From positions 2,519,925 through 2,583,924 of the forward strand of contig OZ244806.1 of NCBI GenBank assembly GCA_965220075.1: a DNA stretch of 64,000 nt, in the 5' to 3' direction. The translations under genes and the position numbers were made by a program. Of the stretch, positions 35,958-63,862 are shown in pieces. This stretch comes from Chloroflexota bacterium. Its GTDB lineage: Bacteria > Chloroflexota > UBA11872. Every line of letters starts with the position of its first letter. The stretch's first letter is position 1. The notes beneath the pieces are model-generated. The model saw only the letters and a program-made list of their open reading frames with translations. It ran no database searches and was not told the DNA's origin.

Positions 35958-35959
35958 TC

Positions 35960-36262: not shown

Positions 36263-37666
36263 TTACGTCCGAAGTTCCAACCGCGGCTGAAGCAGACGTT
36301 CGGGTACATCGTTCTCGCGCATGAACTCCACCAGAAGCCGATGTATCTCCCGTGCTTGGTCCAAGTGATTCTCGATCACATTGTCAAGTTGTTGGGGATC
36401 GGATGTCAGATTGTAGAGCTGAGACACTCCTGGGTCAGGGCTGTATAGCAGGCTCCAATGTCCCGCAGTGACGGTTGTCACCGGAGGGTCTTTGAGATCG
36501 CGGAGGAAGTTGTCTACTGATTGGACCGCGTCGCCCGGATTAGCGAATGGGATGCTGCTGACCACGTAGTCGCGTCCTGATCGTGTGGCGTCGCCCAGGG
36601 CAGGCGCCAGTGAGCGGCCCTGAACGAAGTCCGGGATGGCCACACCCAGCAGGTCGAGCACTGTAGGCATCACATCGATTGCGGAACTCAAGCCGCTGTG
36701 TACCCCGGGAGACACCCCAGGGGCACGGATCAGAAGCGGCAAATGAACCAACTCCTCGAAGAGCGGAGAGTAGCTCCACTGCGAACCCATTTCGTCATAT
36801 GGCCGGAGCGTTCCATCCGGGTACTTGTCTGAGCTCATCTTGCCGAAGAGGCCCCCATGCTCTCCGAAGTAGAAGCCGTGGTCTGAGGTGAAAATGACAG
36901 CCGTCTTGTCCGCAATCCCCATATTCTCTACAGACCTCAGAAGATGGCCCACCCAGGTGTCCACCATCGTGATCTCACCGCAGTAAGCGGCGTGCCCTTT
37001 ACGCATCTGCGCCTCTGTGTAGCCTGGCATATCATGCCAGTTGCCGTAGAGCGGGAGTACGAGCTCGCCATCGTACTCAGGCATGTAGATCTCTGTGTAG
37101 TATGATGGAGCATCCCAGGGCTCGTGGGGATCCCATGTATCCACATATAGAAAGAAATCCTCTTTGTAGTGGCGCTCCAGCCACTGCATGGCAGTCATAA
37201 ATGTCTTCGGCGCATTCCTGTCCGATTCATAGTGCCATCTATCCCTGATATCCAATGCCTCATTGTGATAGCCGGGCTCCGGGATCAACGACCATAGGGT
37301 GTCCTGTCCGGTGTTCATGAAGAATGTCTGGAAGCCTCGGTCGTAGTTCATTCCATCCCTGAGGTAGTATGGCGTGTCCACTGAAGCCGACGTGTGAAAG
37401 CCATGTTTGGCTAGTATCTCCGCAAGAGTGGTCACGCCCGCGGGAAGTGGCTCCCAACCCATGAAGGACATCGTCCATCGCCCTGTGTGATGGTCCGCCC
37501 GTGAGGGCATGGTCGGGAATCCGGCGGAGTAGTGAGCGTCGAACCTGACCGACGCGGCTGCCAACGCATCCAGGGAGGGTGTGCGTATGTAGGAATTACC
37601 ATATGCGCCAACGTGATCCTTGCGAAAGCTGTCGGAAACTATCCAAATGACATTCATACCAGTCAC
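36263..37666 (-). CDS. Sulfatase-like hydrolase/transferase of the alkaline-phosphatase superfamily (Thr at the formylglycine position)
   Basis: 467 aa. NVIWIVSDSFRKDHVGAYG and GFPTMPSRADHHTGR align to the sulfatase blocks IVADDLGYGDLGCYG and SPVCSPSRAALLTGR, but with T-M-P-S-R in place of C/S-x-P-x-R. C-terminal FTSDHGFYFGEHG metal-site block is present. No signal peptide or TM. Confidence 0.8.
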   Translation of the reverse strand: MTGMNVIWIVSDSFRKDHVGAYGNSYIRTPSLDALAAASVRFDAHYSAGFPTMPSRADHHTGRWTMSFMGWEPLPAGVTTLAEILAKHGFHTSASVDTPYYLRDGMNYDRGFQTFFMNTGQDTLWSLIPEPGYHNEALDIRDRWHYESDRNAPKTFMTAMQWLERHYKEDFFLYVDTWDPHEPWDAPSYYTEIYMPEYDGELVLPLYGNWHDMPGYTEAQMRKGHAAYCGEITMVDTWVGHLLRSVENMGIADKTAVIFTSDHGFYFGEHGGLFGKMSSDKYPDGTLRPYDEMGSQWSYSPLFEELVHLPLLIRAPGVSPGVHSGLSSAIDVMPTVLDLLGVAIPDFVQGRSLAPALGDATRSGRDYVVSSIPFANPGDAVQSVDNFLRDLKDPPVTTVTAGHWSLLYSPDPGVSQLYNLTSDPQQLDNVIENHLDQAREIHRLLVEFMRENDVPERLLQPRLELRT

Positions 37667-37674
37667 TTTCGTAG

Positions 37675-37980
37675 TTAGTTCGTTTCGGTAAGTGTATCAC
37701 CGAGCAGGCTACGGATTGACTTCCGCCAGGCGAAGGCCGTCATTGGGGGGATCGGACCGTCCACTACTTCGTCCTGTACGTTCCCCACTGTGACGGCTTC
37801 GCTACCGCCCATGCCCTGTGCCCAGTCGGAAAACGGCGAGAAGAGATTGTCGCTGAGTAGGAGGCCTTCGACTCGTGTCAGACGGGCAAGGTCGGGAGAC
37901 ATTTCCGGGTACCCCGACCAGCCGCCATCCAGGAAGACGACATCGTAGGGCTCGCGGAGCGTCGGCAGGACGTCGATCGC
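37675..37980 (-). pseudogene. Class I SAM-dependent O-methyltransferase (caffeoyl-CoA OMT family 3) C-terminal fragment
   Basis: AIDVLPTLREPYDVVFLDGGWSGYPE...VEGLLLSDNLFSPF matches the C-terminal half of family-3 OMTs (FDxxFIDADKxxY...GGLIxxDNVLW). An in-frame TAG sits at 37981-37983, and the N-terminal SAM-binding half is unreadable in any frame. Confidence 0.5.
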
Positions 37981-37982
37981 CT

Positions 37983-38030
37983 GGTGGGCCTAGTGAGACT
38001 GAATGGCGAACTTCCCGCTGGGAGATCCAG
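37983..38030. repeat. 46-bp repeat R4 (GGTGGGCCTAGTGAGACTGAATGGCGAACTTCCCGCTGGGAGATCC); second copy 40376-40425
   Basis: About 40/46 identity between the two copies, both inside the putative island and in the same orientation. Confidence 0.6.
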
Positions 38031-38166
38031 CTGCCAAAGGTCGGCTTGGTGGATGCCGAGGTGATGCGGGTGCCATTCGTCAACCCGACCAGGGAGCGTC
38101 CCCAGACAGAATTGTGAAGCCGCTCGACCTCTGGACGTCCACCACGCCGGGCGCCCCTACGCTAGG

Positions 38167-39717
38167 TTAACTGCCTTTGATGAAGTCGGCTGCACGTTCC
38201 GCCATGGCGATTACCGTTAGGTTGAGATTAGCCCGGACAGTATCAGGCATGATCGAGGCGTCGACGACGCGCAGTCCGTCGATGCCGTAGACCCTTCCGT
38301 ACTGGTCCACCACGGCCAACGGATCATTTGAAGGACCCATTTTGCAAGTGCTCGATACGTGGTGTGCGGTGATCACCGCCCGCTTCATCCAAGAATCCAG
38401 GGCATCATCGTCGGACAGGACGTCGTCCGGTGGTGCGAGCCGCTCCTCGACTATCTGATCGAAGGCCTCATGCTTAAACAGGTCGGCGCACACCCTGACA
38501 CATTCACGTAGCCGCGACCGATCGATGGGATCGTCCAGCAGGTTGAAGTCGAGATAGGGAGGTTGCCTGGGGTCGCCGGATTGGAGGCGCAGCTCGCCCC
38601 GGCTGAAGGCCAGGTACAGGCACAAACTTACGCCTATGCCTATCGGGTTCCTATGATCCAACCCCCTCATGGGCTTCGCCGCCGAATAGTTGCCCATGTA
38701 GATGACCAAATCGTTCTTGAAGGACGAACCCGAGGCCGTAAACCGCAGGGTGACGGTGCCAGTCGCGACCTGGTCGGTGTTTAGTGGGAACCCTTCACGC
38801 GTACGCCAGGCCATTGGCACATCCGGGTGATCGCGAAGATTGCGCCCGACACCAGGGAGATCCTGTACGACGGGTATGTCCAACTGCCGCAATTGGTCCC
38901 CAGGCCCAATACCCGACAGAGCCAGGATTTGCGGCGTACCTATGGCACCAGCACAGAGGATTATCTCCTCGCCATAGACGGAAAACTCCTCATGACCGCT
39001 GATGACCCGCAGTCCTACCGCTCGACGGCCTTCGAAGATGATCCCGACGACAAGGCAATGGGGTCTGATGGTCAAACCCCTTCGATCGCGCGCTGGGTCG
39101 AGGTAGCCCATTGCCGCACTCACACGCACGCGGCCGGTGACGTTGAAGGCAAGGGGCCCTACGCCCGTGGAGTCAAGTTGATTGTGGTCCGGACAATCGG
39201 GGAACCCGGCGTCTCGACATGCCCGGTAGAAGGCGCGTTGTTGGGGGCCCCATTCGTCGGGCTGATACCTGCGGCAGCTTATGGGGCCATCCGAACCGTG
39301 GAATTCATCTGCGAAATCCTGGTCCGCTTCCAACTTTCGCAGGTAGGGGAGTATCTTCTCGAACTGCCATTCGGAGTTCCCCCACTCCGCCCATCGGTCG
39401 AAGTCCTCCGGCATTCCACGAAGAAACTGAGCGTCGTTGATAGCGCTAGAGCCGCCCGTGACCTTTCCGCGAGGGACATCTATCCAAGCCTGGTCCGTGG
39501 CTCTGGCGCGAAAATTCCAAATGTGTCCGCTATCCCAGATTGCTTTCCCGGTCCCGTAGGCGTACTTCACCGAATCGGGCATCTGCTCCAACGCGGGATA
39601 GTCCCCTCCGGCCTCAAGAAGCAGCACCGACCGGTGACGGTCTTCCGATAGACGGGCCGCCAAGACCGAACCTGCCGATCCCGCTCCGACGACAATGTGG
39701 TCGTATTTCTTAGTCAT
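38167..39717 (-). CDS. GMC-family FAD oxidoreductase (choline dehydrogenase-like)
   Basis: From ATG 39717. YDHIVVGAGSAGSVLAARLSED...VLLLEAGG N-terminal FAD fold, GMC signature GGSSAINDAQF, and C-terminal HH active-site region (ITAHHVSSTCKMG). Confidence 0.9.
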   Translation of the reverse strand: MTKKYDHIVVGAGSAGSVLAARLSEDRHRSVLLLEAGGDYPALEQMPDSVKYAYGTGKAIWDSGHIWNFRARATDQAWIDVPRGKVTGGSSAINDAQFLRGMPEDFDRWAEWGNSEWQFEKILPYLRKLEADQDFADEFHGSDGPISCRRYQPDEWGPQQRAFYRACRDAGFPDCPDHNQLDSTGVGPLAFNVTGRVRVSAAMGYLDPARDRRGLTIRPHCLVVGIIFEGRRAVGLRVISGHEEFSVYGEEIILCAGAIGTPQILALSGIGPGDQLRQLDIPVVQDLPGVGRNLRDHPDVPMAWRTREGFPLNTDQVATGTVTLRFTASGSSFKNDLVIYMGNYSAAKPMRGLDHRNPIGIGVSLCLYLAFSRGELRLQSGDPRQPPYLDFNLLDDPIDRSRLRECVRVCADLFKHEAFDQIVEERLAPPDDVLSDDDALDSWMKRAVITAHHVSSTCKMGPSNDPLAVVDQYGRVYGIDGLRVVDASIMPDTVRANLNLTVIAMAERAADFIKGS

Positions 39718-40453
39718 GCTGCTTCGCTGTCGCGATAGAGCATCCCTAACGGTCGGGTGGTCCTCAATAGAGGCCAGTATCACAATAGCTCACAGGTCGC
39801 ATTGACTCAGGGTGTGTCTTCCTCATGAAGCTTGGCCCCGCTCTGCACCGCGAGCCCTGCGGTAGCCGTAGAGTACCCCGCTGGCGACGCAGGAGGCGTT
39901 TCGCTGAGTCCTCTCGCATGCCCAGCATGACTCCTCAGCGAATCCTATGACGGAGGGTGCACGCCCCCGACTCGTCGGGCGTTCCAGGTTCATTCAGCAC
40001 TAAGACGGGCTCTAGGACCGAGAGCACCAAGCCTGCGTGATAGAGAGGATGAGCACGCGCGAGCGCACGTTCCGACTGCACCGAGATACGGATCAGGAGA
40101 TACCGAAACATGCCGTTCACCACGGCTGCCGGCGGCAGTCACGACGTGATCGACCGAACGTGCAGTTGTGGAACGCTCTACCGTCCCGCTCCGACCAATT
40201 CCGCCTCGCGCCGCAGATCCAGGGTCGGAGCCCACTCGAATAGTCACGCGGTTGCGGCCGAGGCTTCCGGCTGCGTCCCTTAGGCGTAACCATCCCCCGG
40301 ACCATGAACTCCGCCCAAAGAGGCAGTGGCCGCGGCGGCCAAGGAGTTGTGAATGCGGAACGCATCGGCTGAAACATGGTGGGCCTAATGGGACTGAATT
40401 GCGAACTTTTCGCTGGGAGGTCCTCATATAGGAGTCGGTCAGACTATTTTGGC

Positions 40454-45182: not shown

Positions 45183-45434
45183 GCTGAGGGAACGCCGGTG
45201 CGCGGGCGGCCGGCCACGGCAGCTGGATTCAGGCTCAAGGCCGGAATGACGAAGGGGGCGGCCAATCGGCGGCATGCCGAAATGGCGCGGCTTGAAGGGT
45301 CCAGGGACCGATGCGAGGGCCCAGGAGTTGTGCGCAGGCAGAGCGGCGCATAAAGTGCGGCGACCTCCATGGCGCCGGAGTTGGTCGCGGGGCTGAAATG
45401 TCCGCCGCCGCCCCTTCATCTAGATGAGGTGCGT

Positions 45435-47201
45435 ATGACGGACCGCATTGCCGACCGCGGGCTGGTCAACGAGCCGTTCTACGTCACCGACTTGAGCGCC
45501 GTGGAACCGGCGGACGCCGTCGGCGCAGTGCCGGCGTTTCACCGCTGGCGGGCGATGGGGTACACCGCCGGCGACATGAGTGGCCAGATGCTGCTGGCGG
45601 GTCCCGAGACGGCGGCGCCGGACGTCACCCTGGACCTGAATGCAAGCGGCTGGCACGCGGTCTCGCTGGGCCTGATGCCGCCGCCGGGCTATGAGGGCGC
45701 CCCGTTGAAGGTGCTGGCACGGCTGAGCGGCGACACGACGCCGACGATGCTGACCGCGCAAGCGGGGCATCCCGACCGCGGGCACGACTTACAGATCGTG
45801 GACCTCTATTGGCGCTCGGCCGACCTGACGGGCCAGCAGCTGGTGCTGGGGCAGCCGCAGTGGCAGACGGCGCCGGTCGATGCCGTGGGCGCCTGGCGGT
45901 CGGAGATCGTGCGGATTGCTTATGTCAAGCTGGTGCCGCTCACCGACGCGGAGGCGGCCGAGGCACAGGCCGAGCGCCAGCACGGCGATACGCGGCGGCT
46001 GTTCGCCCATCAGGACGCGCACGGGCCGCACTATCTGTGGCGGTTGACGGACGCGGAGGGCATTCGGCGCGAGATCGAGCCCTATCGCCACACCGACTTC
46101 GCCCGCATGTATTGGGAAGCCGGCGAAGGCGACATCAGCTACTACTTCAGCAAGATCGCGCGCTGGTGCACGTTCGACGAGGCCGAAGACTTTGCGCGCG
46201 TGGGCGACCGGCTGCACGCGGAAAGCTGGCGGGCGTTCCGGGACCTGGGCGTTGACCCGCTCGATATCGCCATCGAGCACTGCCACGACGCCGGGCTGGA
46301 ACTACATGCGTCGTACCGCGTGGCCGGCTTCTGGTACCCGCCGCCGATCGACCACTTCAATCTGGGGGACACGTTCGCCGCGGCGCATCCGGAATGGCGC
46401 GGGCGGGATCGCAACGGCCAGACGACGCCGCGCATTGCCTATTCCTATCCCGAGGTGCGGGCCTACGTGGTGTCGCTGCTGCGCGAGATGGCCGAGCGCC
46501 CCATCGACGGCGTGTGCCTGTTGTATAACCGGCGCATGCCGCTGGTGGAGTACGAGCCGCCGGTGGTGGCGGCCTTCCAGGAGGAATACGGCCTCGACCC
46601 GCACGCGCTGCCGGCGGACGACGAGCGCTGGCTGCGGTTCCGGGCGCGCGAGCTGACCCAGTTCATGCGCGAGGTGCGGCAGGCAATGGACGAGGCAGGC
46701 ACGGCGCGCGGCAGGCGCCTTGGAGTTTCAGCCGTGGTGATGAACAGCGAGCAGGAGAACCTCCAAAACGCCATGGACCTGGGAGCGTGGGTCGAGGAGG
46801 GTATCGTCGACACCCTGATTCCCTACACCTCGGCGCCGGGCGGCGACTCGCACGCCGTGTCGTGGGAGAACCCGGCGGATCTGGCGTATTTCGTGGAGCT
46901 GGTGCGCGGGACGGACTGCGTGCTGGCGCCCGGGATGATGCCGCGCCACCGCCCGCCCGAGGACGTGCGCCGCCAGGCGGCGGGCATCTACGGCGCGGGC
47001 GCCGAGCACCTGTTCTTCTGGGACGCGGCGGGCGGCTCCGGGCGGGCGAACTTCGGCGCGATGTGGAATGCGCTGCGGCGGTTGGGGCACCGCGAGGAGA
47101 TCGAGGCCTGGCGCGCGGCGGGCGAGCCCTCCCTGGAACCCACCGCGCACGACGTGGACGTGCTGGACGATTGGGATCTCTCGTATACGACGCCGGGCTG
47201 A
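45435..47201 (+). CDS. GHL10-like (glycoside hydrolase-like family 10/DUF187-type TIM barrel) protein, paralog A
   Basis: About 589 aa. AAHPEWRGRD, YSYPEVRAYVVSLLREMAERPIDGVCLLYNRRMP and WLRFRARELTQFMREVRQAM resemble the GHL10 blocks (hPeW, PeVr...DGixlDyxR, WxxxRxxxitxfv). Roughly 55-60% identical to the next gene. Confidence 0.75.
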   Translation: MTDRIADRGLVNEPFYVTDLSAVEPADAVGAVPAFHRWRAMGYTAGDMSGQMLLAGPETAAPDVTLDLNASGWHAVSLGLMPPPGYEGAPLKVLARLSGDTTPTMLTAQAGHPDRGHDLQIVDLYWRSADLTGQQLVLGQPQWQTAPVDAVGAWRSEIVRIAYVKLVPLTDAEAAEAQAERQHGDTRRLFAHQDAHGPHYLWRLTDAEGIRREIEPYRHTDFARMYWEAGEGDISYYFSKIARWCTFDEAEDFARVGDRLHAESWRAFRDLGVDPLDIAIEHCHDAGLELHASYRVAGFWYPPPIDHFNLGDTFAAAHPEWRGRDRNGQTTPRIAYSYPEVRAYVVSLLREMAERPIDGVCLLYNRRMPLVEYEPPVVAAFQEEYGLDPHALPADDERWLRFRARELTQFMREVRQAMDEAGTARGRRLGVSAVVMNSEQENLQNAMDLGAWVEEGIVDTLIPYTSAPGGDSHAVSWENPADLAYFVELVRGTDCVLAPGMMPRHRPPEDVRRQAAGIYGAGAEHLFFWDAAGGSGRANFGAMWNALRRLGHREEIEAWRAAGEPSLEPTAHDVDVLDDWDLSYTTPG

Positions 47202-47260: not shown

Positions 47261-47381
47261 GAGACCTTTGCGTAACCCCTCGTCATTCCCGCGCACGCGG
47301 GAATCTAGGCCCACCCAACCTGGAACCGCGCATGGTTCCGCCCGGACATCCTTGGCCTGACCGGGTTATGCAAACATCTCT
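47261..47381. mobile_element. MITE-like element (121 bp) with IS5-type terminal inverted repeats, between the two GHL10 paralogs
   Basis: Left TIR GAGACCTTTGCGTAA (47261-47275), right TIR TTATGCAAACATCTCT (47366-47381). Internal hairpin CATTCCCGCG-CAC-GCGGGAATC and the core AGGCCCACCCAACCTGGAAC shared with 33083-33180. Confidence 0.6.
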
Positions 47382-47479
47382 TCGAGGGAGAGGGGGCCGG
47401 ACTCTCACCGGAAAAGGGAGTCGGGGTCGGACCCTAACCTTCTGCTGGACGCGGATTTGAGCGATAGGAGGCGGTGGGC

Positions 47480-49285
47480 ATGACTGAAACGGCAACCGCG
47501 AGCGATCTCTTTGCCGACATGTGGCTGAGCAGCGCGCCGCAATACCGCACGGACCTGGACCGCTGCGAGCCGGCCGCGGCGCTGAGCGCCACGCCCAAGC
47601 GGCGGCACTGGCGGACCATGTCGTTCGAGACGGACGACGTCGCGGGAACCATGATCGCGGCGGGTCCCGAAACCGCCGCGCCGCCGGTGCGCTATCCGCT
47701 GCGCGCCAGCGGCTGGCACGCGGTGTCGGTGGGCGTCGTGCCGAGCTTCAAGTGCACCGACGACACCGCCACGCTGGCGGTCCCCGTCAAGCTCAGCGGC
47801 GACGACACCTATTCGGTGCTCACGCTAAACCTGCCGTCGCTGCAAACCCGGCTGCTGCCGGACTGGCGCGGGCCGGTGGTGGTGGAGATGTTCTGGAAGA
47901 TCGCGGATCTCACGGACATGGACCTCGACATCCTCCAGCTGGTCCGACGCGTTGCGCCGGGCGATCACTTTGGATCGTTGAGCGGCCCGGCGGCGCGCGT
48001 GGCCTACGTCAAGCTGGTGCCGCTGACCGACGATGAGGTCGCGGTCTGGCAGGCGGACCAGGCCCGGAAAGACACGGGCCGCCTGTTTGCGCACAACGAC
48101 TCACACGGGCCGCACTATCTGTTCCGGCTCAACACCCCAGAAGAGGTGCGGCGCGAGATCGAGCCCTACCGCGACACGGATGTCTCGCGCATTTACTGGG
48201 AGGCGGGCGGGGGCGACCGGACGCGGTATTTCAGCCGCATCGCCCGCGCGGAGATCATGGAAGGGCAGGAGGACTTCGGGCGGCGCGGCGACCGCATGCA
48301 CGCCGAAAGCTGGCGGGGCTTCCAACGGCAGGGCGTTGACCCGTTCGACGTGGCGCTGGCGCACACCCACGCGCTGGGCATGGAGTTTCACGCGTGCTAT
48401 CGCGTGGCGGGATTCAAGTATCCGCCGCCGCTGGACGGCGCGAGCCTGGGCGAGGTTTTCTTCGACCGGCATCCCGAATGCCGCGGCGTGGACCGGGCGG
48501 GCAACCGCACGCCGCGCATGGCCTACAGCTATCCCGCGGTGCGGGAGTTCGTGATCGCGGTGTTGCGGGAGATCGCGGAGCGACCCGTGGACGGCGTGTG
48601 TCTGCTGTTCAACCGGCGCATGCCGCTGGTGGAGTACGAACCGCCGGTGGTGGAGGGGTTCCAACAGGAATACGGGCTGGACCCGCGGGAGCTGGCGGCG
48701 GACGATCCCCGCTGGCTGGCCCACCGCGCGCGCACGCTCACCGGCTTCATGCGCGAGTTGCGCGCGGCGCTGGACGACCTGAGACCGGCGGGCACGAAGC
48801 GCCTTGACGTCGGCGCGGTGGTGGCGGCCACCGAGCAGGAGAACCTGCAAGACGGCATCGACCTGCGGGCGTGGGTGAGCGAGGGACTGATTGACACGCT
48901 GATTCCTTATAGCTCGGAGCCGGTCTACGACAGCCACGAGCCAGCCTGGACTGACCCGTCGCAGTTGGCCTTTTTCGTCGAGCTGGTGCGCGGGACCGAG
49001 TGCGTGCTGGCGCCCAACCTGATGCCGCGGCACCAGTCGCCGGAGGACTTCCGCCGCCGGGCGTCAACCGTCTACGGGGCCGGCGCGGGCCACATGTTCT
49101 TCTGGGACGCGGCGGGCGGCTCGGGCCGGGCCAACTTCCAACCCATGTGGAGCGGACTGCGGCGCCTGGGCCACCAGGACGAGATCAGCGCCTGGCAAGC
49201 CGCCGGCGAGCCCCCGCTGCCGCACACGATCAAGCCCCTGCGGCTGTGGGACGGGTGGGATTTCGCCTACGAGACGCCGGGGTAG
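47480..49285 (+). CDS. GHL10-like TIM-barrel protein, paralog B
   Basis: About 601 aa from ATG 47480. Colinear with paralog A over the full length (PETAAP...ASGWHAVS(L/V)G...VAYVKLVPLTD...HAESWR(A/G)F...YSYPAVREFVIAVLREIAERPVDGVCLLFNRRMPLVEYEPPVV...). Confidence 0.75.
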   Translation: MTETATASDLFADMWLSSAPQYRTDLDRCEPAAALSATPKRRHWRTMSFETDDVAGTMIAAGPETAAPPVRYPLRASGWHAVSVGVVPSFKCTDDTATLAVPVKLSGDDTYSVLTLNLPSLQTRLLPDWRGPVVVEMFWKIADLTDMDLDILQLVRRVAPGDHFGSLSGPAARVAYVKLVPLTDDEVAVWQADQARKDTGRLFAHNDSHGPHYLFRLNTPEEVRREIEPYRDTDVSRIYWEAGGGDRTRYFSRIARAEIMEGQEDFGRRGDRMHAESWRGFQRQGVDPFDVALAHTHALGMEFHACYRVAGFKYPPPLDGASLGEVFFDRHPECRGVDRAGNRTPRMAYSYPAVREFVIAVLREIAERPVDGVCLLFNRRMPLVEYEPPVVEGFQQEYGLDPRELAADDPRWLAHRARTLTGFMRELRAALDDLRPAGTKRLDVGAVVAATEQENLQDGIDLRAWVSEGLIDTLIPYSSEPVYDSHEPAWTDPSQLAFFVELVRGTECVLAPNLMPRHQSPEDFRRRASTVYGAGAGHMFFWDAAGGSGRANFQPMWSGLRRLGHQDEISAWQAAGEPPLPHTIKPLRLWDGWDFAYETPG

Positions 49286-49387: not shown

Positions 49388-50134
49388 CTAAGGAGCCAGT
49401 TCTTCGAGTCTAATCCATGCACCCGGATAGCGACCCCTTAGCTCATAGAACATTTCTACGGTCCCATTGAAGAGACCTTCTTCAAGTTTGTGGTAAGCAA
49501 GCCAATTGTTTTCGTCATGAAGGTCGAATTCACCATATATCTTTTCCAAAGGCCGAAGCTGAAACAGCTCGTGCGTGAGGAACTTATTTCTGTATGTAAC
49601 AAATATCGACTCGAAATTGGTGGCCCCGAGCGACGTGTCCAATATCTCGTCAATTGGTTTGATGAGGCTCGACAGACCATGCTTCGCAAGGATTGGCCGC
49701 ACGTTAACATCTGATGGATACTTAGTGGAAGCGACAAAATAGTTGAAGCATATAGATCTCAATGCGTTCAGATAGAAGGATTGCTCTGGGCTGGCGTTTC
49801 CATTTGATTCAGTTGCGATCAATAGACCGGTATATCCATGTACAAAGCCAAACATGGAATGAAGCATAATCCCAAGTTCCACTCTGTCATTCTCTGACAT
49901 ATCGGAGGGCAGAAACTGCCGGCTCCATCGAGCGTCCAAGTTAAACCATTGATGATCTGGTATTGGCTCAGGAGGCCCGACGGTAAGGTCTTCATTGATC
50001 TCTGCTAGCAATCCGGACTTGCACTTGAGACATTTGTATACAAGGCTTAAACCAAATCGGCCGCGGCTCTCAAAGCTACAATCGGTATCGTTTATACGAC
50101 CAACATTGTCGCACTTTTTGCAAGTGATATTCAT
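49388..50134 (-). CDS. hypothetical protein with N-terminal CxxC...CxxC zinc-ribbon, AT-rich (about 42% GC; foreign)
   Basis: About 248 aa from ATG 50134. MNITCKKCDNVGR...YKCLKCKSG zinc ribbon followed by an uncharacterised domain. The upstream in-frame extension in the track runs into GC-rich REP hairpins and is rejected. Confidence 0.6.
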   Translation of the reverse strand: MNITCKKCDNVGRINDTDCSFESRGRFGLSLVYKCLKCKSGLLAEINEDLTVGPPEPIPDHQWFNLDARWSRQFLPSDMSENDRVELGIMLHSMFGFVHGYTGLLIATESNGNASPEQSFYLNALRSICFNYFVASTKYPSDVNVRPILAKHGLSSLIKPIDEILDTSLGATNFESIFVTYRNKFLTHELFQLRPLEKIYGEFDLHDENNWLAYHKLEEGLFNGTVEMFYELRGRYPGAWIRLEELAP

Positions 50135-50246
50135 CGCCAATCTTGAGGATCCATGTCCTTCCTCTGCCAAGCACAGATTACCCTCCCTTTGAGATTGTAA
50201 GGGAGTGCACATTCGCCAGTCACGTTGTTCACCATTCAGGTGCGTG

Positions 50247-50275
50247 GCCGGTGGCCCAGGCTGCGTGCAGCCTGG
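50247..50275. repeat. REP-type hairpin GGCCCAGGCTGC-GTG-CAGCCTGGG; sister hairpin CCCACGCTGC-GTG-CAGCGTGGGCCACCG at 50411-50440
   Basis: Two near-identical 10-bp-stem hairpins 165 bp apart, related to the hairpin at 29975-30000 and sharing the GGTGGCCC/GGGCCACC flanks of the REP family. Confidence 0.6.
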
Positions 50276-50548
50276 GAAGAACAGTGTGGCTCCTTCGCTC
50301 GATACCGGCATGGACAGTCCCGATCCTACTCAGGGAGGACTGGTTCAACGCTTGGGTTGTCGGGTAGCCCGGTCGCGGCGACAGCCCCGCCTCACAGTCC
50401 CTGTCTTGAGGGAATCCCACGCTGCGTGCAGCGTGGGCCACCGAGCCATACACTGCACGAGTGCCTAATACTGTTAGGAATGCTCTGAAAAAGCCCGGTG
50501 GTTGCGGCAGGGCCTATGCTCACGAGCGACGGATAGCCGCTGAGGGCC

Positions 50549-52340: not shown

Positions 52341-52385
52341 GAGCGCCTAGCTGCCCTAGCCGGAGACGTGTGAGCTGCGGCTGAC

Positions 52386-52680
52386 CGATGCTTGCGCCGC
52401 ATCCCGCCGCAGCGTCTCCACCTCGCCGGCCTCCAGCTCCCTCGCTGCCCCGGCCGCCAAGTCGCCCAGCGTCACGGGCCGAGGCGCACGCGCCGCAAGT
52501 GCGTGACCCGCATTCCCACGGCCTCGAACATTCGCCGCACCTGCCGCTTGCGGCCCTCGGTGAGCACCAACTGCCAGTCGTTGTTCCCGCGCCGGTCGCC
52601 GGTCGCCGATATCGATGCCGTCGGTGAGCCGTCGGACCAGATCACCCTAGAGGTGGCCTGGTTTATGACCGATCACTTGG
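52386..52680 (-). pseudogene. RsuA/RluB-type pseudouridine synthase C-terminal fragment with in-frame stop
   Basis: Minus-strand translation LVLTEGRKRQVRRMFEAVGMRVTHLRRVRLGPVTLGDLAAGAARELEAGEV matches the EGRNRQVRRMFEAxG...LxRVRxG C-terminus. It is preceded by a TAG within the conserved LDxDTEGL region, and no N-terminal domain is present. Confidence 0.5.
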
Positions 52681-53234
52681 TCTAGATCGAGAGCGATCGC
52701 AACATACAGGAGTTTGAGTTTGGCAACAGAGCGGCGAGAGTCGTGATTTCATAGCTGAAACAGAGGTAAATCACCCCCCTACAGGACGTGAACAGTGAAC
52801 ACTTTTTGAAAGGCCGCAGTCCGGTCTGAAAGGCTGAAACGCGGTGGATGGTGGGGGCCACGACAAGGCGGAAAAGCGGCGGGTGGGTTGGAAAACAGGG
52901 CGCAGAAGGTGATGGATGTGCCGGTGCATGACGTGGCGGTTTTGTGGCTGTCAGAGGCATCTCCGGCCCTCTGAAGGGCATTGACGCACTGCTCGTCGAG
53001 GTCGTGGGGTGGTGACACGTCAGCACGTGACTGTGCCTGGGGATCGGTCGCTCAGGGTCTCGAAGCCGGGCTCCCAGGGCCTCCAGCCCGGCGACGGCGG
53101 CTTTCAGCCTGTCTGCCAGTTCCCTCGTCCTCCCGCACGCGGCCCGCTCCTTCCGACACGCCTCCTCCAGCTCCTCGTATGCGTCCCTGCCGGCGGCTGC
53201 GGCGTCCCTGGCCTCGTCCCGTTCCCGCTCCCGC

Positions 53235-53360
53235 TTCTAAGTATTCCTGACGAATATCCCTCACCAACTCGGGATGGGTGAGCATCGGACCGCCCGACCA
53301 CGTGGAGGGGCTTGCCAGCCCACGCCTCTCGAACTCCGAGCCCATACCCCCGTCCATCAA
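53235..53360 (-). pseudogene. Homocysteine S-methyltransferase/MetH Hcy-binding domain N-terminal fragment (about 42 aa)
   Basis: MMDGGMGSEFERRGLASPSTWSGGPMLTHPELVRDIRQEYLEAGA matches the ILDGGMGTELERRG...WSA..L..PExVxxIHxxYxxAGAD N-terminus. The downstream sequence is low-complexity. Confidence 0.35.
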
Positions 53361-53673
53361 GATCGTCTCCCCCGCTGCTGGGAGTCTGTCCGAGAAACAA
53401 TGTTCTAAACCATATGCGTCATTAGTGGAGTGTAAAGATGCTAATTACTCCACGACAAAGTCCAGATTGCTATAAGCAGGTTATTGCGTGGCGTTTTTCG
53501 TCTCCAGGAACGAATCCTCGGACAGGCTCCTAGCAGGTTTGAACAAGTTTCCTTTTGCTCCCACGTCCATACAGGTGCAGTTCCCTCAAGGCTGCCGACA
53601 TCGCATCTTCTCCCAACAGCTCCCACAGACTAAACAGGAAGTGCTCGCCCAAACTATAGTTACCAACTATTTT

Positions 53674-53741
53674 GCTCCCAGCGCTGTGGCATGTACCAGG
53701 AGACCCCGAGCGAAACGCATCAAATTATGGTGTGGTGCGTT
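53674..53741. repeat. Second copy of 67-bp repeat R3 (see 35960-36026)
   Basis: About 62/67 identity to copy 1, in the same orientation. Not accompanied by a tRNA-half. Confidence 0.7.
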
Positions 53742-54033
53742 TTCCTGGGCCTCGACTTCGAGCGTCATCCGCGCCAGGATTGCGCCATGCTCACTGGCAT
53801 GCGAGCTCTCTCGATTCCCGCGGATCGTCTTGTGATTGCCGCCGAAGTGCGGAACCCAGAGGCCGCCCCCATAGCACTCGCCGAAGCGTGTTCGCCGTCT
53901 TAGTTCCGGAACAATCGGCTTCGGAAGTCACGCGCGATTTCGTCAGTTCCGGCAACAGCCAGGATTCACTCAATCCTGGCATGTCCTCTTCGTTCCGCGA
54001 GTTGCCGCCATTGCCGCTGCGGCTTCCGAACTA

Positions 54034-54804
54034 CTAACAGCCGAAGCCCAGGGTGAAGATGCAGAGCATGCCCTCTATGAACTTGTCGATGTTGCCCAAG
54101 GCGTTCAAGCCAAGTTCGGCCAGGGTCAACAGCGCTTCGGCTGTGATCGCCCCGGCCTCGAGCAGCTTGAGCAGGTCAGCGTTGCCGGATCGCTGGGCGA
54201 GCTCCGCGATCCCGGGGCCGTTGGGATCGGCGCCGGCGTCCAGCAGCAGCTGTACGACCGCGATGTCGCCGCGATCGACGGCTAGGGCCAGGACCGATAG
54301 GCCTTCCTCCGCCAGGGTGTTGGGATCGGCGCCGGCGTCCAGCAGCATTTTCAGAATCTCGGCTTCGCCCTCTATCACGGCCCAGACCACGACCGCGAGG
54401 CCGGCTCCGTCCTTGGCATTAGGGTCAGCGCCGGCGTCCAGCAGCATTTTCAGAATCTCGGCTTCGCCACCGCGGACAGCCAAGGACGCAACAGGGTCGC
54501 CGTCCGACGTGAGGGCGTCGGGATTGGCGCCGGCATCCAAGAGCAGTGGCACGATTTCCGAGTCGCCAAGCTCAACGGCGACCGGCAAGGCCGAACGGCC
54601 GTCTTCGTCCCGGTATTTGGGGTCGGCGCCGGCCCAGATCGCGAGCTCGACAAGCGTCGTCCGGCGTTCGGAAACGTGGTCCAGCAGCAGCGCATCGTCG
54701 CTGAGGATCAGCCGTGCCAGGAAAAACAGAAGCACGGGCCCAGCGAGCACGAGAGCCACGGCGGCGTAGAGGACGAACCGAAGTCGGGCTGTCACGGAGT
54801 CCAT
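54034..54804 (-). CDS. Ankyrin-repeat protein with N-terminal transmembrane anchor
   Basis: 256 aa. N-terminal TM helix LYAAVALVLAGPVLLFFLARLIL, then about 6 ankyrin repeats (LLDAGADPN... repeated; GDPV/GLAVVVWAV...). Confidence 0.85.
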   Translation of the reverse strand: MDSVTARLRFVLYAAVALVLAGPVLLFFLARLILSDDALLLDHVSERRTTLVELAIWAGADPKYRDEDGRSALPVAVELGDSEIVPLLLDAGANPDALTSDGDPVASLAVRGGEAEILKMLLDAGADPNAKDGAGLAVVVWAVIEGEAEILKMLLDAGADPNTLAEEGLSVLALAVDRGDIAVVQLLLDAGADPNGPGIAELAQRSGNADLLKLLEAGAITAEALLTLAELGLNALGNIDKFIEGMLCIFTLGFGC

Positions 54805-55105
54805 CTCGCCAATGTGCGCTGGCCGAGGCTGGCAGGATTTCGGAGCCGTACCGGACGGTGCGCCCTCAGTCTCTGGGACGGTGACCCAAGGGTTGAACTG
54901 ACGCGGGACGAATCCGTTTCAATGGGCGGATCTGGAACGCCGTTCCCGGTCATCGCGTCTGCGATCTCGATCGATTTAGGTAGTGGGTGAGATGGTCCCG
55001 CCTCGACAGAGGCACGCCCCCCGTTCAGAAGCAATCGGCGACACCCTCACGTTGGCCCGGTTTCCGTCCGGGCCAACGTGGGGGTTGGAATGCCGTCGTC
55101 GTGCG

Positions 55106-56170
55106 CTAAGTCACATCGTCGAACGCCCAGGCGAACACCCCACGCACGTCCTCGCGGTGATCGCCGCGGCAGCCGGCCTCCGCCTGATCGCCGAAGACTG
55201 CCTGATAGATGCCGACGTTGTTGTCGTTACCGAGGTGGTTCTCCACGATGTCGTTGAGGTCGACGCAGGTCGTGGGCCAGCCCAGGACCGGCCCCGCGGC
55301 CAGCGCCTCGCGGATAATCCGTACGATTTCCGAACCTTCCCCCTCCCAGAACAAGGCATAGCCCAGAGGAAGCCGGCCGCCAGAGTTGTTGAGGGTCACA
55401 TCGACCCCGGCGTCGACGAGGATGCGCACGATTTCCGTGTGGCCTCGAAAGATGGCTTCGAACAAGAGCGGATCGCCGTTGCTTTCCTTGGCGTTCACGT
55501 CCGCCCCGGCGTCCACCAGGATCCGCACGACGTTCGTGTGGCCTCGCCAGATCGCGGAATGAATCACTGGGTCGCCATCGGCGTCCCTGGCGTCCACGTT
55601 GGCGCCGGCGTCAATCAGGATCTGCACGACATCCGCGTGGTCCCGCCAGATCGCCGAATGAATCACCGGGTCGCCGTCGGAGTCCGTGGCGTTCACATTG
55701 GCGCCGGCTCCTGCCAGGATCCGCACGATCTCGACGTGGTTGCGCCAGACCGCCTCGCGAATGAGGGGATCGTTGTCCGAGGTCCGCACATTGGCGTTCA
55801 GACCGCCGGCCACAAGGGTGCGCACCTGCTCGGTCTGGCCCCGCCAGACGGCTGAGTAAAGGGCGTCATCCACCAGCGGCAGGGACGGCGCTGCGACAGC
55901 GGGTGGGGGAGCGGGTGGCGCGAGATCGAACGCCCAGGCAAACACCCCGCGCACGTCCTCGCGGTGGTCGACCTGGCAGCCGGCCTCGGCCTGGTCGCCA
56001 AAAACCCGCTGGTAGATGCCCACGTTGTTCTCCCGGCCCAGGTGCTGTTCCACGACGTCGTTTAGGTCGACACAGGTGGTGGGCCACTGGGCGAACACCG
56101 GTGTCGCGAGCGCCGCAGCAGCGGCCACCGCAACCACCACCGCAATGAGAGTCGGTCGTACCCGTGTCAT
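55106..56170 (-). CDS. Secreted ankyrin-repeat protein with duplicated Cys-containing N- and C-terminal domains
   Basis: From ATG 56170. Signal peptide MTRVRPTLIAVVVAVAAAAALATPVFA. The roughly 55-aa module WPTTCVDLNDVVEQHLGRENNVGIYQRVFGDQAEAGCQVDHREDVRGVFAWAFD is repeated almost verbatim at the C-terminus, flanking about 5 ankyrin repeats (ILAGAGANVNATDSDGDPVIHSAIWRDH...). Confidence 0.85.
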   Translation of the reverse strand: MTRVRPTLIAVVVAVAAAAALATPVFAQWPTTCVDLNDVVEQHLGRENNVGIYQRVFGDQAEAGCQVDHREDVRGVFAWAFDLAPPAPPPAVAAPSLPLVDDALYSAVWRGQTEQVRTLVAGGLNANVRTSDNDPLIREAVWRNHVEIVRILAGAGANVNATDSDGDPVIHSAIWRDHADVVQILIDAGANVDARDADGDPVIHSAIWRGHTNVVRILVDAGADVNAKESNGDPLLFEAIFRGHTEIVRILVDAGVDVTLNNSGGRLPLGYALFWEGEGSEIVRIIREALAAGPVLGWPTTCVDLNDIVENHLGNDNNVGIYQAVFGDQAEAGCRGDHREDVRGVFAWAFDDVT

Positions 56171-56525: not shown

Positions 56526-56601
56526 TGGAGCCCACACCCGGAATTGAACCGGAGACCTCGTTCTTACCAAGAACGCGCTCTACCGACTGAGCTATGTGGG
56601 C
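56526..56601 (-). tRNA. tRNA-Thr (anticodon GGT), CCA encoded
   Basis: The reverse complement folds canonically: acceptor GCCCACA/TGTGGGC, D-arm GCTC-AGTCGGTA-GAGC, anticodon stem CGTTC/GAACG with loop TTGGTAA, T-arm TCCGG-TTCAATT-CCGGG, CCA. Two CAAAnnTATGGTGTCTT motifs lie within 85 nt of its 3' end. Confidence 0.9.
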
Positions 56602-57979: not shown

Positions 57980-59101
57980 TCATCGAGTCAACACCGCTTC
58001 GAGGGCGCGCGCAGCTTCGTGCTTCGCATCCATCGCTATGTGTCCGTAAGTGTCCTTCGTGACCTGGATGCTCGCGTGCCCAAGCAACTCGCTGACGATG
58101 GCCAGTGGCACGCCAGCGCTGAGCATTAGGCTGGCACAGCAGTGACGAAGGTCGTGCCAGCGCATGCGTGCCACGCCAGCTTGCTCAAGCGCCCTGTGAA
58201 AGCGTCGGAGGACGTTACGTGGATCCTGCTCGGTACCGGTGGCTGACGGAAACACTAGGTCGCGGTCGTCCCATTCGGGTCCAGCAAGAAGTCGTTGCCC
58301 AATCTGGCGGCCACGGTGTCCGCGCAGCGCACGAACGAGATCGGGTGCCAGCGGCACAACTCGATCACTCGTGCGTGTCTTGGTCGGCACCACCAGAATC
58401 CCTACATTCGGCATTCGTGTCACCGATCGCGTTATGCGAGCGGTTTGACCATCCAGATCGACATCGGACCAGCGTAAGCCCAGCAGCTCACCCTGACGAA
58501 CACCTGTGAAAGCGGCGAACCTAACCTCGTACTCAACCGGCGTCCCTTCCACCGCTCGCAGGACAGCAAGCACACGCTCAATGCTCGGTACCTCAACCAC
58601 GCGCCGTGGCACGGTTGGAGGGATAACAGCGCGTGCCACGTTGCCTGCGACCATCTTCAGACGAACCGCATCTTCGAGTGCCTTGTGCAGCACTCGATGG
58701 ACGTGAACGATCGTACGCGGATGTAGACCGCCACTCTTGCCGTCACGCCTACCCGACACCGCTGCCCGCGCGTACAAGTCTTGAATTTCCATCGGATGTA
58801 GGCGGCCCATCTTCCGGTCGCCAATGTGTGGAATTATGTGAAGTTCCGCCAGTTGTCCGTACCGCCTCACCGTTCTTGCCGACGCATGCGTTCCATGTTG
58901 CGCCAACCAGTGGTGCAGATACTCGGCAACCGTGAGGTTCTGAGCGTCGAAGAGGATTCCTCCCTCAAGTTCGCGTCGACGCTTGTCAGCGCGCGCCAGC
59001 GCCTCGCGTTTCGTCGCTGCCGATCTGGCCACTGTACGCTTCAGAACTTGACTGTAGACACGGCATTGCCAACGTCTGCCGCGCTTCTCAAAACTAGCCA
59101 T
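57980..59101 (-). CDS. Site-specific tyrosine integrase (phage-integrase family)
   Basis: About 373 aa from ATG 59101, with a GGAGG RBS. N-terminal SAM-like/core-binding domain and C-terminal catalytic domain with R...HDLRHCCASLMLSAGVPLAIVSELLGHASIQVTKDTYGH (R-H-R-Y tetrad region). Confidence 0.9.
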   Translation of the reverse strand: MASFEKRGRRWQCRVYSQVLKRTVARSAATKREALARADKRRRELEGGILFDAQNLTVAEYLHHWLAQHGTHASARTVRRYGQLAELHIIPHIGDRKMGRLHPMEIQDLYARAAVSGRRDGKSGGLHPRTIVHVHRVLHKALEDAVRLKMVAGNVARAVIPPTVPRRVVEVPSIERVLAVLRAVEGTPVEYEVRFAAFTGVRQGELLGLRWSDVDLDGQTARITRSVTRMPNVGILVVPTKTRTSDRVVPLAPDLVRALRGHRGRQIGQRLLAGPEWDDRDLVFPSATGTEQDPRNVLRRFHRALEQAGVARMRWHDLRHCCASLMLSAGVPLAIVSELLGHASIQVTKDTYGHIAMDAKHEAARALEAVLTR

Positions 59102-59111
59102 TGATTTCCTC

Positions 59112-59300
59112 CTACATACCAGCGCGCTCCCGGATAAATCGGAGCAGCGCCTCACGTGGAATGCGGTAGTCGCGCCCCCCTAACTTGAAGCTGGGGAGTT
59201 CGCCGCTGCGAATCATTTCGTAAATCGTCTTGCGCCGACACCGAAGAAGTTCGGCGCACTCGGTCGGTGTGAACACGACCTGATTGATGTCGACGGTCAC
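59112..59300 (-). CDS. Excisionase-family DNA-binding protein (HTH, MerR-like Xis)
   Basis: 62 aa. FTPTECAELLRCRRKTIYEMIRSGELPSFKLGGRDYRIPREAL matches the excisionase DNA-binding domain. Lies immediately upstream of int. Confidence 0.75.
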   Translation of the reverse strand: MTVDINQVVFTPTECAELLRCRRKTIYEMIRSGELPSFKLGGRDYRIPREALLRFIRERAGM

Positions 59301-60441: not shown

Positions 60442-61632
60442 GGAGACCTTTGAATAATTGGGGATGGAGCGCGTGGGGAGGGGCATCGGCAACGCCTGGA
60501 GGCCGGCGCGGCGTCCGGTCGGGCGGGCCGGCACGAGATCCCGTGCCGCGGGACCCCGCGCGCGGCGCACTGGTCCCGCGGTCAGCCCGTGGCCCAGGCC
60601 AGGGTGTCCGCTTTGCGCAGGTTGTAGGCCATGAGCTTGAACCACAGCTCCACGGTGTTGCGCCCCAGCCCGCGGTAGCGCACCCGCTGGTAGCCATAGC
60701 TGCGCTTGAGGGTGCCGAAGACCTTCTCCACCAGCGCCCGGCGGGGCGCGATGAGGGCGTTACGCCGCTGCTGCCAGACGGGGAGCGCCCGTTGGTGTTT
60801 GTGGGAGCGGTGCATGATCCGGTCGTTGATCCCCTGGGCCTGCAGCCACCGGCGCCGGCGCGTGGACTCGTAGGCCCGATCGCCGTACACCGCCCGCTCG
60901 TCCCCGCTCACCAAGGCGTCGGCCACCTCGCTCTCGGAGACGTTGGCGGGGGTCAACGCCGCCCGCCGCACCACGCCCGTGTCCGCATCCACCCCAGATG
61001 CACCTTGTAGCCAAAGTGGGAGCGGCCGCCCCGCCCCCGTTGGGTCCACGCCGCCTCTGGATCGGTGGCACTCGGCGCCCCGCGCCCCGCCGCCAGCGGC
61101 GGGCGCCGCACCTGCGCCGCCACCAGGGTGGCGTCCAGCAGCGTGCCCTGCTTCAGCACCAGGCCCTGCGTGTCCAGTTGCGCCGCCAGCTCCGTAAACA
61201 ACGGCGCGCTGAGCCCGTCGACCTCCAACGCCTGGCGAAAGCGGCTGATGGTGGAGTGGTCCGGCGTGGCGTCCTGCAGGCCCAGCCCCACAAAGCGCCG
61301 GAAGGAGAGCCGGTCGCCCAGCGCCTCTTCCAGCTGGGGGTCCGAGAGGCTGTACCACTGCTGGAGCAGCAGCACCTTGACCATCAGCAGCGGCGGATAG
61401 CTGGGCCGCCCGCGCGGGGCGGCGTGCACGCCCGCCACGACCTGCCCGAGCCGCTCCCAGTCCACCGCGTCGTCGATCCGCTCCAGCCGCTGGTTCTGGC
61501 CCAGCGTCTCCGACACCACCGCTTCCGCCAGCGACGGCCGGCCCATGTCCCGGTGCATACGACTTCTCCCCCATCATCCGCCTGGCGACGCCCAATACTC
61601 CGCTCCGCCCCCGGATTTACGCAAAGGTCTCC
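60442..61632 (-). mobile_element. IS5-family insertion sequence (about 1.19 kb) with 16-bp TIRs GGAGACCTTTGMRTAA and a frameshifted transposase
   Basis: TIRs at 60442-60457 (GGAGACCTTTGAATAA) and 61617-61632 (TTACGCAAAGGTCTCC). The transposase N-terminal (DUF4096/DUF772) part is ORF 60953-61558, and the DDE part (GDRAYES...) is in another frame at 60582-about 61000. This is either a programmed frameshift, as in the IS427/IS1031 groups, or inactivation. Confidence 0.7.
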
Positions 61633-63610: not shown

Positions 63611-63786
63611 CCGCCAATCCGAGAGTGAACAGATATCGTTCTCATTGGTGAGGCCTCCTCCGTGTGGCCATCATTGTCGCCGCTGCGCTGCATTCTCCAT
63701 ACGGGGCTTAGGACATGGATTCGCTCAGGAGAAAAGTGAGCGCGCCGACAGGAAGTCATCAGAAAAGTAAACGCTGTCGGGACTGG

Positions 63787-63862
63787 TGGACCGAATTGGA
63801 CTCGAACCCACGACCTCCGCAATGCGAGTGCGGCGCTCTTGCGCCTGAGCGTCGGCCCGTCG
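63787..63862 (-). tRNA. tRNA-like gene, probable tRNA-Ala (anticodon CGC) with non-canonical T-stem; CCA encoded
   Basis: Reverse complement GGGCCGA-C-GCTC-AGGCGCAA-GAGC-G-CCGCA-CTCGCAT-TGCGG-AGGTC-GTGGG-TTCGAGT-CCAAT-TCGGTCC-A-CCA. The acceptor and anticodon stems pair well. The T-stem 3' strand CCAAT pairs poorly with GTGGG, and only one nucleotide separates the acceptor and D stems. Could be a degenerate or fragmentary tRNA. Confidence 0.4.

Follow-up and report, generated by a model that had tools for sequence, protein, structure and literature searches.

SLH domains and dockerins are anchoring modules of about 55 residues, which occur in two or three copies at one end of unrelated secreted proteins. 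Ankyrin and other eukaryote-like proteins are a standard genomic signature of sponge symbionts. Ankyrin proteins, leucine-rich repeat (LRR) proteins and the like have been recognized as hallmarks of sponge symbionts including Chloroflexi, and it has been proposed that the ankyrin proteins take part in escaping or blocking phagocytosis (PMC6306507). In this study, we analyzed a 64,000-nucleotide (nt) stretch from the genome of a Chloroflexota bacterium (GenBank assembly GCA_965220075.1, contig OZ244806.1, positions 2,519,925 to 2,583,924), hereafter called the window, in which two adjacent genes at 54034-56170 encode the ankyrin-repeat proteins AnkA and AnkB. We found that AnkA carries a short two-Cys module before and after its ankyrin repeats. 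Sequence comparison identifies it as a conserved, previously undescribed module, which is shared by a wider family of putative secreted proteins; no description of the module or of this family was found in the literature searched.

The AnkA coding sequence (CDS; 55106-56170, minus strand, as are all its parts given below) encodes 354 residues and was recognized from the list of open reading frames (ORFs), Pfam Ank matches and an orthologue alignment. We place its start at the ATG at 56170 because 58 orthologues begin at the same MTRVRP/MRRIR position. A longer ORF up to the ATG at 56287 was also considered, and the orthologues give it no support. AnkA is composed, in order, of a signal peptide, the first module copy (M1), a Pro/Ala linker, six ankyrin repeats, the second module copy (M2) and the residues DVT before the stop codon. 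The predicted Sec-type signal peptide (residues 1-27, 56090-56170) starts with MTRVRP, continues with a 16-residue hydrophobic core and ends in TPVFA/QW, where the slash marks the predicted cut after VFA. It was read from the sequence and from the conserved junction: its n-, h- and c-regions and the ATPVFA/QWP junction are kept in the 58 orthologues. This canonical and conserved sequence suggests that AnkA is exported via Sec. The Pro/Ala-rich linker (residues 83-98, 55877-55924) is evident from the sequence and has low predicted local distance difference test (pLDDT) values in the full-length AlphaFold model. The ankyrin array (residues 99-292, 55295-55876) was detected by Pfam (Ank_2, 117 bits against a cut-off of 27.3; Ank, 93 bits; the ankyrin cut-offs are 21-27 bits), by repeats with a 99-nt period and by AlphaFold, which models it as six helix pairs with pLDDT 85-98 in a stacked solenoid fold.

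The two module copies, M1 (residues 29-82, 55925-56086, with Cys33 and Cys65) and M2 (residues 298-351, 55118-55279, with Cys302 and Cys334), were delimited by a module model and by the M1/M2 alignment. They are identical at 47/54 residues and at 133/162 nt. Of 29 differing nucleotides, 21 are in the third position of a codon, and the differing codons comprise 16 synonymous and seven non-synonymous ones. An independent repeat finder recovered the same pair as a 161-nt direct repeat with 83% identity. Since the copies have diverged synonymously while the protein has been kept, comparison of the two indicates a genuine duplication of considerable age that selection on the protein has preserved. 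The original prediction had described a repeated module of roughly 55 residues, which was reproduced on realignment with an accurate consensus string; its picture of one ankyrin protein with a transmembrane anchor beside another with a signal peptide and the duplicated two-Cys module also agrees with our results. A recent duplication or a mis-assembly of AnkA is excluded by the synonymous divergence between M1 and M2 together with the many orthologues; in particular, AnkA is not an assembly artefact because more than 55 orthologue clusters carry the same split layout.

Both Cys residues are retained in 253 of 254 distinct module instances. About half of the module positions are at least 95% conserved across these instances, and many of them are polar (N10, D11, E14, H16, N22, Y26, Q27, E35, D41, H42, R43 and D45). 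This conservation is far above that of the intervening ankyrin repeats and of the accompanying passenger regions generally; such strong and polar-rich conservation suggests a common ligand or partner. Against Pfam and NCBIfam, whole proteins and isolated modules gave ankyrin matches only and none to the module, and a fold search against PDB and BFVD gave no match. When M2 was modelled alone from 70 sequences, AlphaFold predicted with pLDDT 93 a helix at positions 8-19, a turn, a long helix at 27-51 and a short third helix. The resulting helical hairpin has no beta strand, and its two Cys residues face each other. A Cys-Cys bridge probably staples each module copy. Asp5 co-occurs with Arg39 in 33 of 34 cases, and both residues flank the two Cys residues; this agrees with the hairpin geometry, but shared ancestry could also yield it.

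When the module profile was compared with PDB sequences, only repressors of the Arc family matched, with E-values of 0.1-0.45 (P22 Arc, 0.1; the Arc-family protein 9pio_G, 0.15). The better score of a single-chain Arc is due solely to the two copies in that chain. The first 32 residues of the module align to Arc 12-43, that is helix A, loop and helix B, with 38% identity in the pattern WPxxxxxLxxxVxxxxGxxxNxxIYQRV, sharing the WP start, the G-x-x-x-N turn and IYQRV; hhalign gave a probability of 90% with a pairwise P of 1.4e-6. The Pfam Arc model, however, did not match the module even at E<=10, and fold searches with the module model did not recover Arc. The N-terminal beta strand of the ribbon-helix-helix (RHH) fold is also missing: the module starts with Q-W-P at the cleavage site and its model has no strand. 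Unlike Arc and Mnt, the module would be extracytoplasmic, and it has a longer second helix with a Cys and DHRxDVR as well as a third helix. Kinship of the module with Arc is therefore, at this borderline sequence similarity, an unproven lead. Were it true, the module would serve for dimerisation, and the M1 and M2 of a single chain might pair with each other.

Such a pairing leads to an alternative explanation of the architecture, in which the module is an Arc-like helix-loop-helix and an obligate dimer, M1 and M2 form a pseudo-dimer and the ankyrin solenoid is the loop between them. The role of this intramolecular clasp would be structural, giving stability or protease resistance as in engineered single-chain Arc, instead of partner binding. 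It is consistent with the Arc matches being the only ones among PDB sequences and in register, with the hhalign probability and with the agreement of the predicted module helices with the Arc register. Two copies are also the commonest state in the family (165/241 proteins), and tandem copies are almost always separated by a linker of 14 residues, which is within the range functional for single-chain Arc. We nevertheless consider the clasp unlikely. The Arc similarity is borderline after correction for database size, and neither a Pfam Arc match nor the strand that defines RHH proteins is present. Moreover, 74/241 proteins have a single module, some of them being fragments, the monomer is modelled confidently alone, and the full-length AlphaFold model shows no confident contact between M1 and M2.

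To determine the distribution of the module, its profile was searched exhaustively against 1.84 billion proteins, each representing a cluster at 50% identity. This search returned 284 clusters at E<=0.001, of which 141 were at E<=1e-30; a word-indexed protein search with the module only had given just 16 short, mostly fragmentary matches. A search with whole AnkA also returned proteins that match in the modules only, the remainder being LRR, RCC1 or beta-propeller regions. In a GTDB scan with one genome per species, 220 module stretches were confirmed and 78 loci were kept. All 78 are in metagenome-assembled genomes (MAGs) of Chloroflexota, as are all named sources of module proteins. Each complete chromosome accounts for eight or nine of the loci listed. 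Three to six modules lie within 6 kb in 22 of 80 loci (the 78 scan loci and two relatives of the window, L001 and L002), and thus paralogues are often side by side. The viral contigs searched contained no module relatives and gave no sign of phage carriage.

Copy number and layout were examined in 241 module proteins, consisting of the profile-search matches and the matches to AnkA relatives, a set that is enriched for AnkA-like proteins. Two copies are present in 165 of them and one copy in 74, some of which are fragments; tandem copies occur in 96 proteins, and copies split as in AnkA in 71. The first module almost always begins at residues 24-40, right behind the signal peptide. The common layout is a signal peptide, M1, a 14-residue linker, M2 and a passenger, and the linker is exactly 42 nt in most loci. 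In 116 tandem-type proteins, Pfam found passengers of the RCC1 (14), trypsin-like (10), LRR (6), PD40 (5), ankyrin (2) and fn3 (2) types, and about 70 had no Pfam match in the passenger. Single members have cytochrome c, M1-like or MA-clan metallopeptidase, or Big_2 domains. The passenger domains are therefore diverse and of extracytoplasmic types. Polymorphic toxins have a different layout: the passengers here are repeats, peptidases, cytochrome c or regions without a match, and clustering of the flanking ORFs revealed no recurrent small downstream gene of the immunity type.

The original prediction regarded the symmetric architecture of AnkA as unusual. The symmetry is real, but it is not a stand-alone oddity; it is a variant of the widespread tandem layout. 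In the split proteins, 150, 181 or 214 residues lie between the modules, in steps of whole ankyrin repeats, and AnkA has the longest spacing. Profiles derived from tandem proteins typed the first module of split proteins as M1 in 47/51 cases and the second as M2 in 49/51. In AnkA itself, M1 scored 125.8 bits with the tandem-M1 profile against 123.0 bits with the tandem-M2 profile, and M2 scored 126.3 bits with the tandem-M2 profile against 123.1 bits with the tandem-M1 profile. Furthermore, an insert separates M1 from M2 in P0054 and P0143, and further domains follow M2. From the M1- and M2-type signatures in the split forms and this layout it follows that the duplication predates the ankyrin insertion. 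These sequences are most simply explained if an ancestral tandem protein received an ankyrin array in the linker between M1 and M2, the symmetry of AnkA being a derived state.

Some members and relatives of the family deserve mention. P0083 and its relatives P0084-P0092 have another Cys-containing module of about 65 residues (NYEGEDFCQDTPSWPNGTYLG...DPCVTWAQDQRNSAIRG), which is duplicated at the N-terminus, has no Pfam match and is combined with an ankyrin array that shows 56-61% identity to that of AnkA. P0089, P0104 and P0123, which are module proteins of the LRR or RCC1 type, share about 75 C-terminal residues that contain two Cys residues and end in ...DG.W.IE; this region appears beta-rich and has no Pfam match. 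P0202 combines FtsK alpha and motor domains, a membrane helix, a long Ala/Pro-rich region and a terminal tandem module pair, and it could be a membrane anchor displaying modules or a gene-calling chimera. In P0151, a cytochrome c domain is joined to the module pair.

Because paralogues are numerous in each genome and often adjacent, it might be supposed that the module persists as a handle for recombination at the DNA level, by which passenger cassettes are exchanged among paralogues, with little function as a protein. The occurrence of the same ankyrin array with different N-terminal modules, as in P0083, and the change of ankyrin repeat numbers by whole units would suit this idea. However, the differences between M1 and M2 at 29/162 nt are mostly synonymous and the protein is kept; both Cys residues and many polar residues are near-invariant in the 254 instances; and the M1- and M2-specific signatures are stable across paralogues, which argues against homogenising gene conversion. 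We consider this explanation extremely improbable.

The constant position behind the signal peptide, the presence in one or two copies, the conservation of polar residues, the varied extracytoplasmic passengers and the many paralogues together favour a role of the module as a handle. We propose, with about even confidence, that AnkA is an exported ankyrin protein in which the module serves as a shared docking or retention handle and the solenoid binds a host or matrix target. After Sec export and removal of the signal peptide, mature AnkA would start with M1 and end with M2. The module would then act in a common post-export step, most likely by retaining or docking the protein on a single conserved partner, either on the cell surface or in the surrounding matrix, and self-association of modules is another possible mechanism of the handle. 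The ankyrin solenoid would bind a host or matrix protein. The five features named above resemble those of anchoring modules such as SLH domains or dockerins. We hold the docking step itself with less confidence than the proposal as a whole. Published work on sponge symbionts (PMC6306507) makes a host-interaction role for AnkA plausible.

Several points weigh against this proposal. While the architecture, the conservation, the distribution of the family and the att structure are shown directly, we infer that AnkA is exported, contains disulfides, docks through its modules and has a host target, and partner binding and surface localisation of the module have the same footing; the signal peptide of AnkA and the topology were read by eye. 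In the full-length AlphaFold model the modules have pLDDT values of 34-58, and their position relative to the ankyrin array is undefined. RCC1, LRR and ankyrin domains would suit host targets inside cells no less than outside them. The sponge habitat is inferred only from bin names: the prefixes RHO2 and SB0662 occur among the module-bearing MAGs, and two papers use them for sponge-derived MAGs.

Alternatively, the module might be a host-delivery leader, analogous to the RxLR or PEXEL regions in effectors of eukaryotic pathogens, by which sponge cells take up effectors of the ankyrin, LRR and RCC1 types; no injection system was noticed in this bacterium, though no search was aimed at one. The position behind the signal peptide is constant while the cargo varies, these three are classic eukaryote-like effector domains, and the family is confined to MAGs that are apparently sponge-associated. 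On the other hand, many passengers are typical extracellular or periplasmic ones (trypsin-like and metallo-peptidases, PD40 propellers and cytochrome c), and one of the AnkA modules sits C-terminally. In addition, we know of no precedent in bacteria for such a leader, which counts against the idea. We consider delivery very unlikely. A broader possibility is that the module is an undescribed extracellular domain, possibly an exapted, disulfide-stapled Arc-like core, that tags the host-directed secretome (ankyrin, LRR, RCC1, propellers and proteases) of sponge-symbiotic Chloroflexota and acts by module-module surface docking or by host-cell delivery. This is speculative and distinctly unlikely; if it were true, bacteria would have in this module a counterpart to the leaders that mark effectors in eukaryotic pathogens.

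AnkB is the second ankyrin protein of the locus, and the expectation of two adjacent ankyrin proteins was correct: both minus-strand ORFs are present and are far above the Pfam ankyrin thresholds. The AnkB CDS (54034-54804, minus strand, as are its parts), recognized from the ORF list, Pfam and orthologues, encodes 256 residues with an N-terminal membrane helix, ankyrin repeats and a C-terminal tail. An alignment of 24 orthologues delimits the hydrophobic helix (residues 10-30, 54715-54777), which is preceded by Arg7 and Arg9, both invariant in these orthologues. The helix is, judging from this pattern, a probable N-in signal anchor, and by the positive-inside rule the repeats would be on the outer side of the membrane. 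The ankyrin repeats (residues 47-195, 54220-54666) were detected by Pfam (Ank 80 bits and Ank_2 81 bits, against cut-offs of 21-27) and as 99-nt repeats. The conserved C-terminal tail (54037-54156, from the same alignment) ends in GMLCIFTLGxGC-COOH, in which Cys248 and the terminal Cys256 are invariant in the 24 orthologues. On inspection, a lipobox and a CaaX motif were rejected for this C-terminus, as the Cys is the final residue and CIFT is not C-terminal; to our knowledge, GMLCIFTLGxGC fits no known sorting or lipidation motif.

Orthologues of AnkB form at least 55 clusters with 61-100% identity in the same clade, and their ankyrin repeat number varies. AnkA and AnkB are adjacent or one to three genes apart in at least ten other genomes, and this co-conservation suggests a functional link. 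AnkB would be tethered to the membrane by its N-terminal helix, with its repeats probably exposed on the same side as those of AnkA. In the window, an inverted repeat (55043-55085; pair I6 of the repeat finder) with 18-nt arms that are 94% complementary and a 7-nt gap begins 21 nt 3' of the AnkA stop codon. It is possibly a terminator or an RNA-stabilising hairpin. A scan for T-tract terminators made no call at this repeat, and a promoter and terminator scan of the region yielded nothing beyond chance level.

The start of AnkA is 355 nt downstream of the 3' end (56526) of tRNA-Thr(GGU), which was found by the tRNA scan and Rfam (56526-56601, minus strand), is the integration site and has its 3' end facing AnkA. 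The Rfam scan of the window gave only the four tRNAs. The last 45-48 nt of this tRNA, from the anticodon loop on, are repeated 20.6 kb away at 35908-35956, with two mismatches in the terminal 25 nt, where zero such matches are expected by chance. The tRNA copy is preceded by a conserved element-end arm at 35957-36027 (together 35908-36027, minus strand; repeat search D12 and relatives), and the two mark the outer boundary of the array. An internal copy of this arm, which is about 75 nt long, lies beyond AnkB at 53667-53741 and is followed by TTGGTAA (together 53660-53741, minus strand; repeat search D10 and relatives); these 7 nt are all that remains of the tRNA part at this arm. AnkA and AnkB thus form a tRNA-proximal cassette of 2.9 kb between tRNA-Thr(GGU) and the internal arm, and the placement of the pair at the tRNA-proximal end of an island was confirmed by the distal tRNA copy and the arm beyond AnkB. 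In view of these repeats, tRNA-Thr(GGU) is a hot spot of integration that carries a 20.6-kb tandem array of elements without their own integrase; a scan of the main ORFs at 35.9-56.5 kb gave no integrase domain. The nearest tyrosine integrase is outside the array, at 57980-59155, with a GC content of 60% and a GC content at third codon positions (GC3) of 0.61.

Comparison with two close relatives, L001 and L002, revealed the same system, with elements that end in the arm and a tRNA copy of 44-48 nt, but also variation at this site. L002 has an extra pentapeptide-repeat islet of 2.5 kb between the tRNA and a perfect 45-nt tRNA copy (L002 5606-8214), after which the AnkA-AnkB region follows with 96% identity to the window. 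L001 has the distal arm and a 44-nt tRNA copy (L001 9571-9646 and 15164-15274). At L001 11274-12335, AnkB codons 1-75 (98.7% identical) are fused to codons 251-537 (96% identical) of the GMC oxidoreductase gene; therefore, a single deletion removed the approximately 15 kb that separate both genes in the window. The GC3 of AnkA and AnkB is 0.80-0.82 and that of bcp and cupin nearby is 0.84-0.85, so the base composition of the two genes is not atypical but host-like in GC3. Other cargo of the array, namely orf307, the sulfatase and the GMC oxidoreductase, is compositionally atypical, which suggests that cargo of different origins is present within the array. The assignment of AnkA and AnkB to an island holds, as the tRNA site, the direct repeat and the variable presence speak for it, with the qualification that the genes are not compositionally foreign and the array has no integrase inside.

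In 11 species representatives, a HisKA_3 kinase and a GerE-type regulator are followed immediately by an AnkA-type gene, and no tRNA is close by. These two-component-linked loci (L003-L005, L007-L010, L013-L015 and L024, at about 400-2800) have their genes on the same strand. An AnkA-type gene is likewise directly behind a HisKA_3/GerE pair at L081 5522-7490, and two genes intervene at L082 623-2594. The HisKA_3/GerE pair is not present in the window. The presence of the AnkA-type gene at a two-component system in other species implies that the pair is widespread in the clade and was relocated into the island in the lineage of the window, and it suggests that the two-component-linked arrangement represents an ancestral regulated locus. 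The original prediction had left open that the genes might be core genome in all relatives. The pair is indeed conserved across the clade, but its placement in a tRNA island is not found in the 11 species.

Other features of the array and its surroundings were also observed. Between AnkB and the rest of the array, a 1.7-kb stretch without an intact gene (52341-54033) holds an N-terminal fragment of 45 residues of a homocysteine S-methyltransferase (53226-53357, minus strand; PF02574, E 2.5e-7), which probably represents the remains of a pseudogene where the two elements join. The 307-residue ORF at 49388-50311 (minus strand) has no Pfam match and a GC content of 47.7%, compared with 65% for the window, and the sulfatase and GMC oxidoreductase genes (36263-39783, minus strand) have a low GC content of 56-59%. 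Tandem paralogous GHL10-like genes (45369-47201 and 47474-49285, plus strand) encode proteins with 57% identity, and a 91-nt repeat between them (47310-47400) matches 33109-33199 at 75% identity. The segment 42525-42589 resembles the 3' half of tRNA-Ala(CGC) (63784-63858) with 72% identity over 65 nt; ARAGORN made no call there, and it may be a further degraded attachment site inside the array. Beyond the array, a DDE transposase (60582-61595) and the tyrosine integrase at 57980-59155 sit between tRNA-Thr(UGU) and tRNA-Ala(CGC). In L002, the genes called beside tRNA-Thr(UGU) on the same side are of the PhyH family, with no integrase among them.

With regard to known systems, Legionella Dot/Icm ankyrin effectors are, like AnkA, bacterial ankyrin proteins, and they are thought to act on host proteins. 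They differ in that AnkA has a Sec signal peptide, not a type IV signal, and belongs to Chloroflexota. The NCBIfam models T4SS_AnkY, AnkH and AnkX scored 52-96 bits against the ankyrin repeats, with cut-offs of 600-1400; membership among the Legionella-type effectors is ruled out by the best score of 95.5 bits against a cut-off of 600, and only the generic repeats therefore match. The locus shares with tRNA-integrated islands the insertion at a tRNA 3' end, the distal direct repeat, the end arms and the variable presence among relatives. It is unlike them in being a 20.6-kb array without an integrase inside, whose AnkA-AnkB unit measures 2.9 kb, has host-like codons and has a distal attachment (att) site of 7 nt. 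It thus offers a concrete case in which ankyrin genes move in small cassettes, flanked by att sequences, at a tRNA that is a hot spot of integration.

The module would be analogous to SLH domains and dockerins as a short repeated unit that has many passengers per organism and is more conserved than these passengers. The analogy is functional only: the module has no similarity to them in sequence or fold, and it has a Cys pair. As one module is common to more than 100 clusters of putative secreted proteins, it is a sequence tag that lists a candidate host-interaction secretome, and as a small and well-predicted domain it is suited to expression and partner testing. AnkA is closest to the ankyrin proteins of sponge symbionts, with which it has in common the ankyrin array and, as predicted from its sequence, an export signal, and which are enriched in the symbionts compared with free-living relatives (PMC6306507). 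It differs from them in the flanking M1 and M2, which are common to a wider family of putative secreted proteins. AnkA is therefore a variation on the known theme of eukaryote-like proteins of sponge symbionts, and the module that frames its ankyrin repeats is itself new to this theme.

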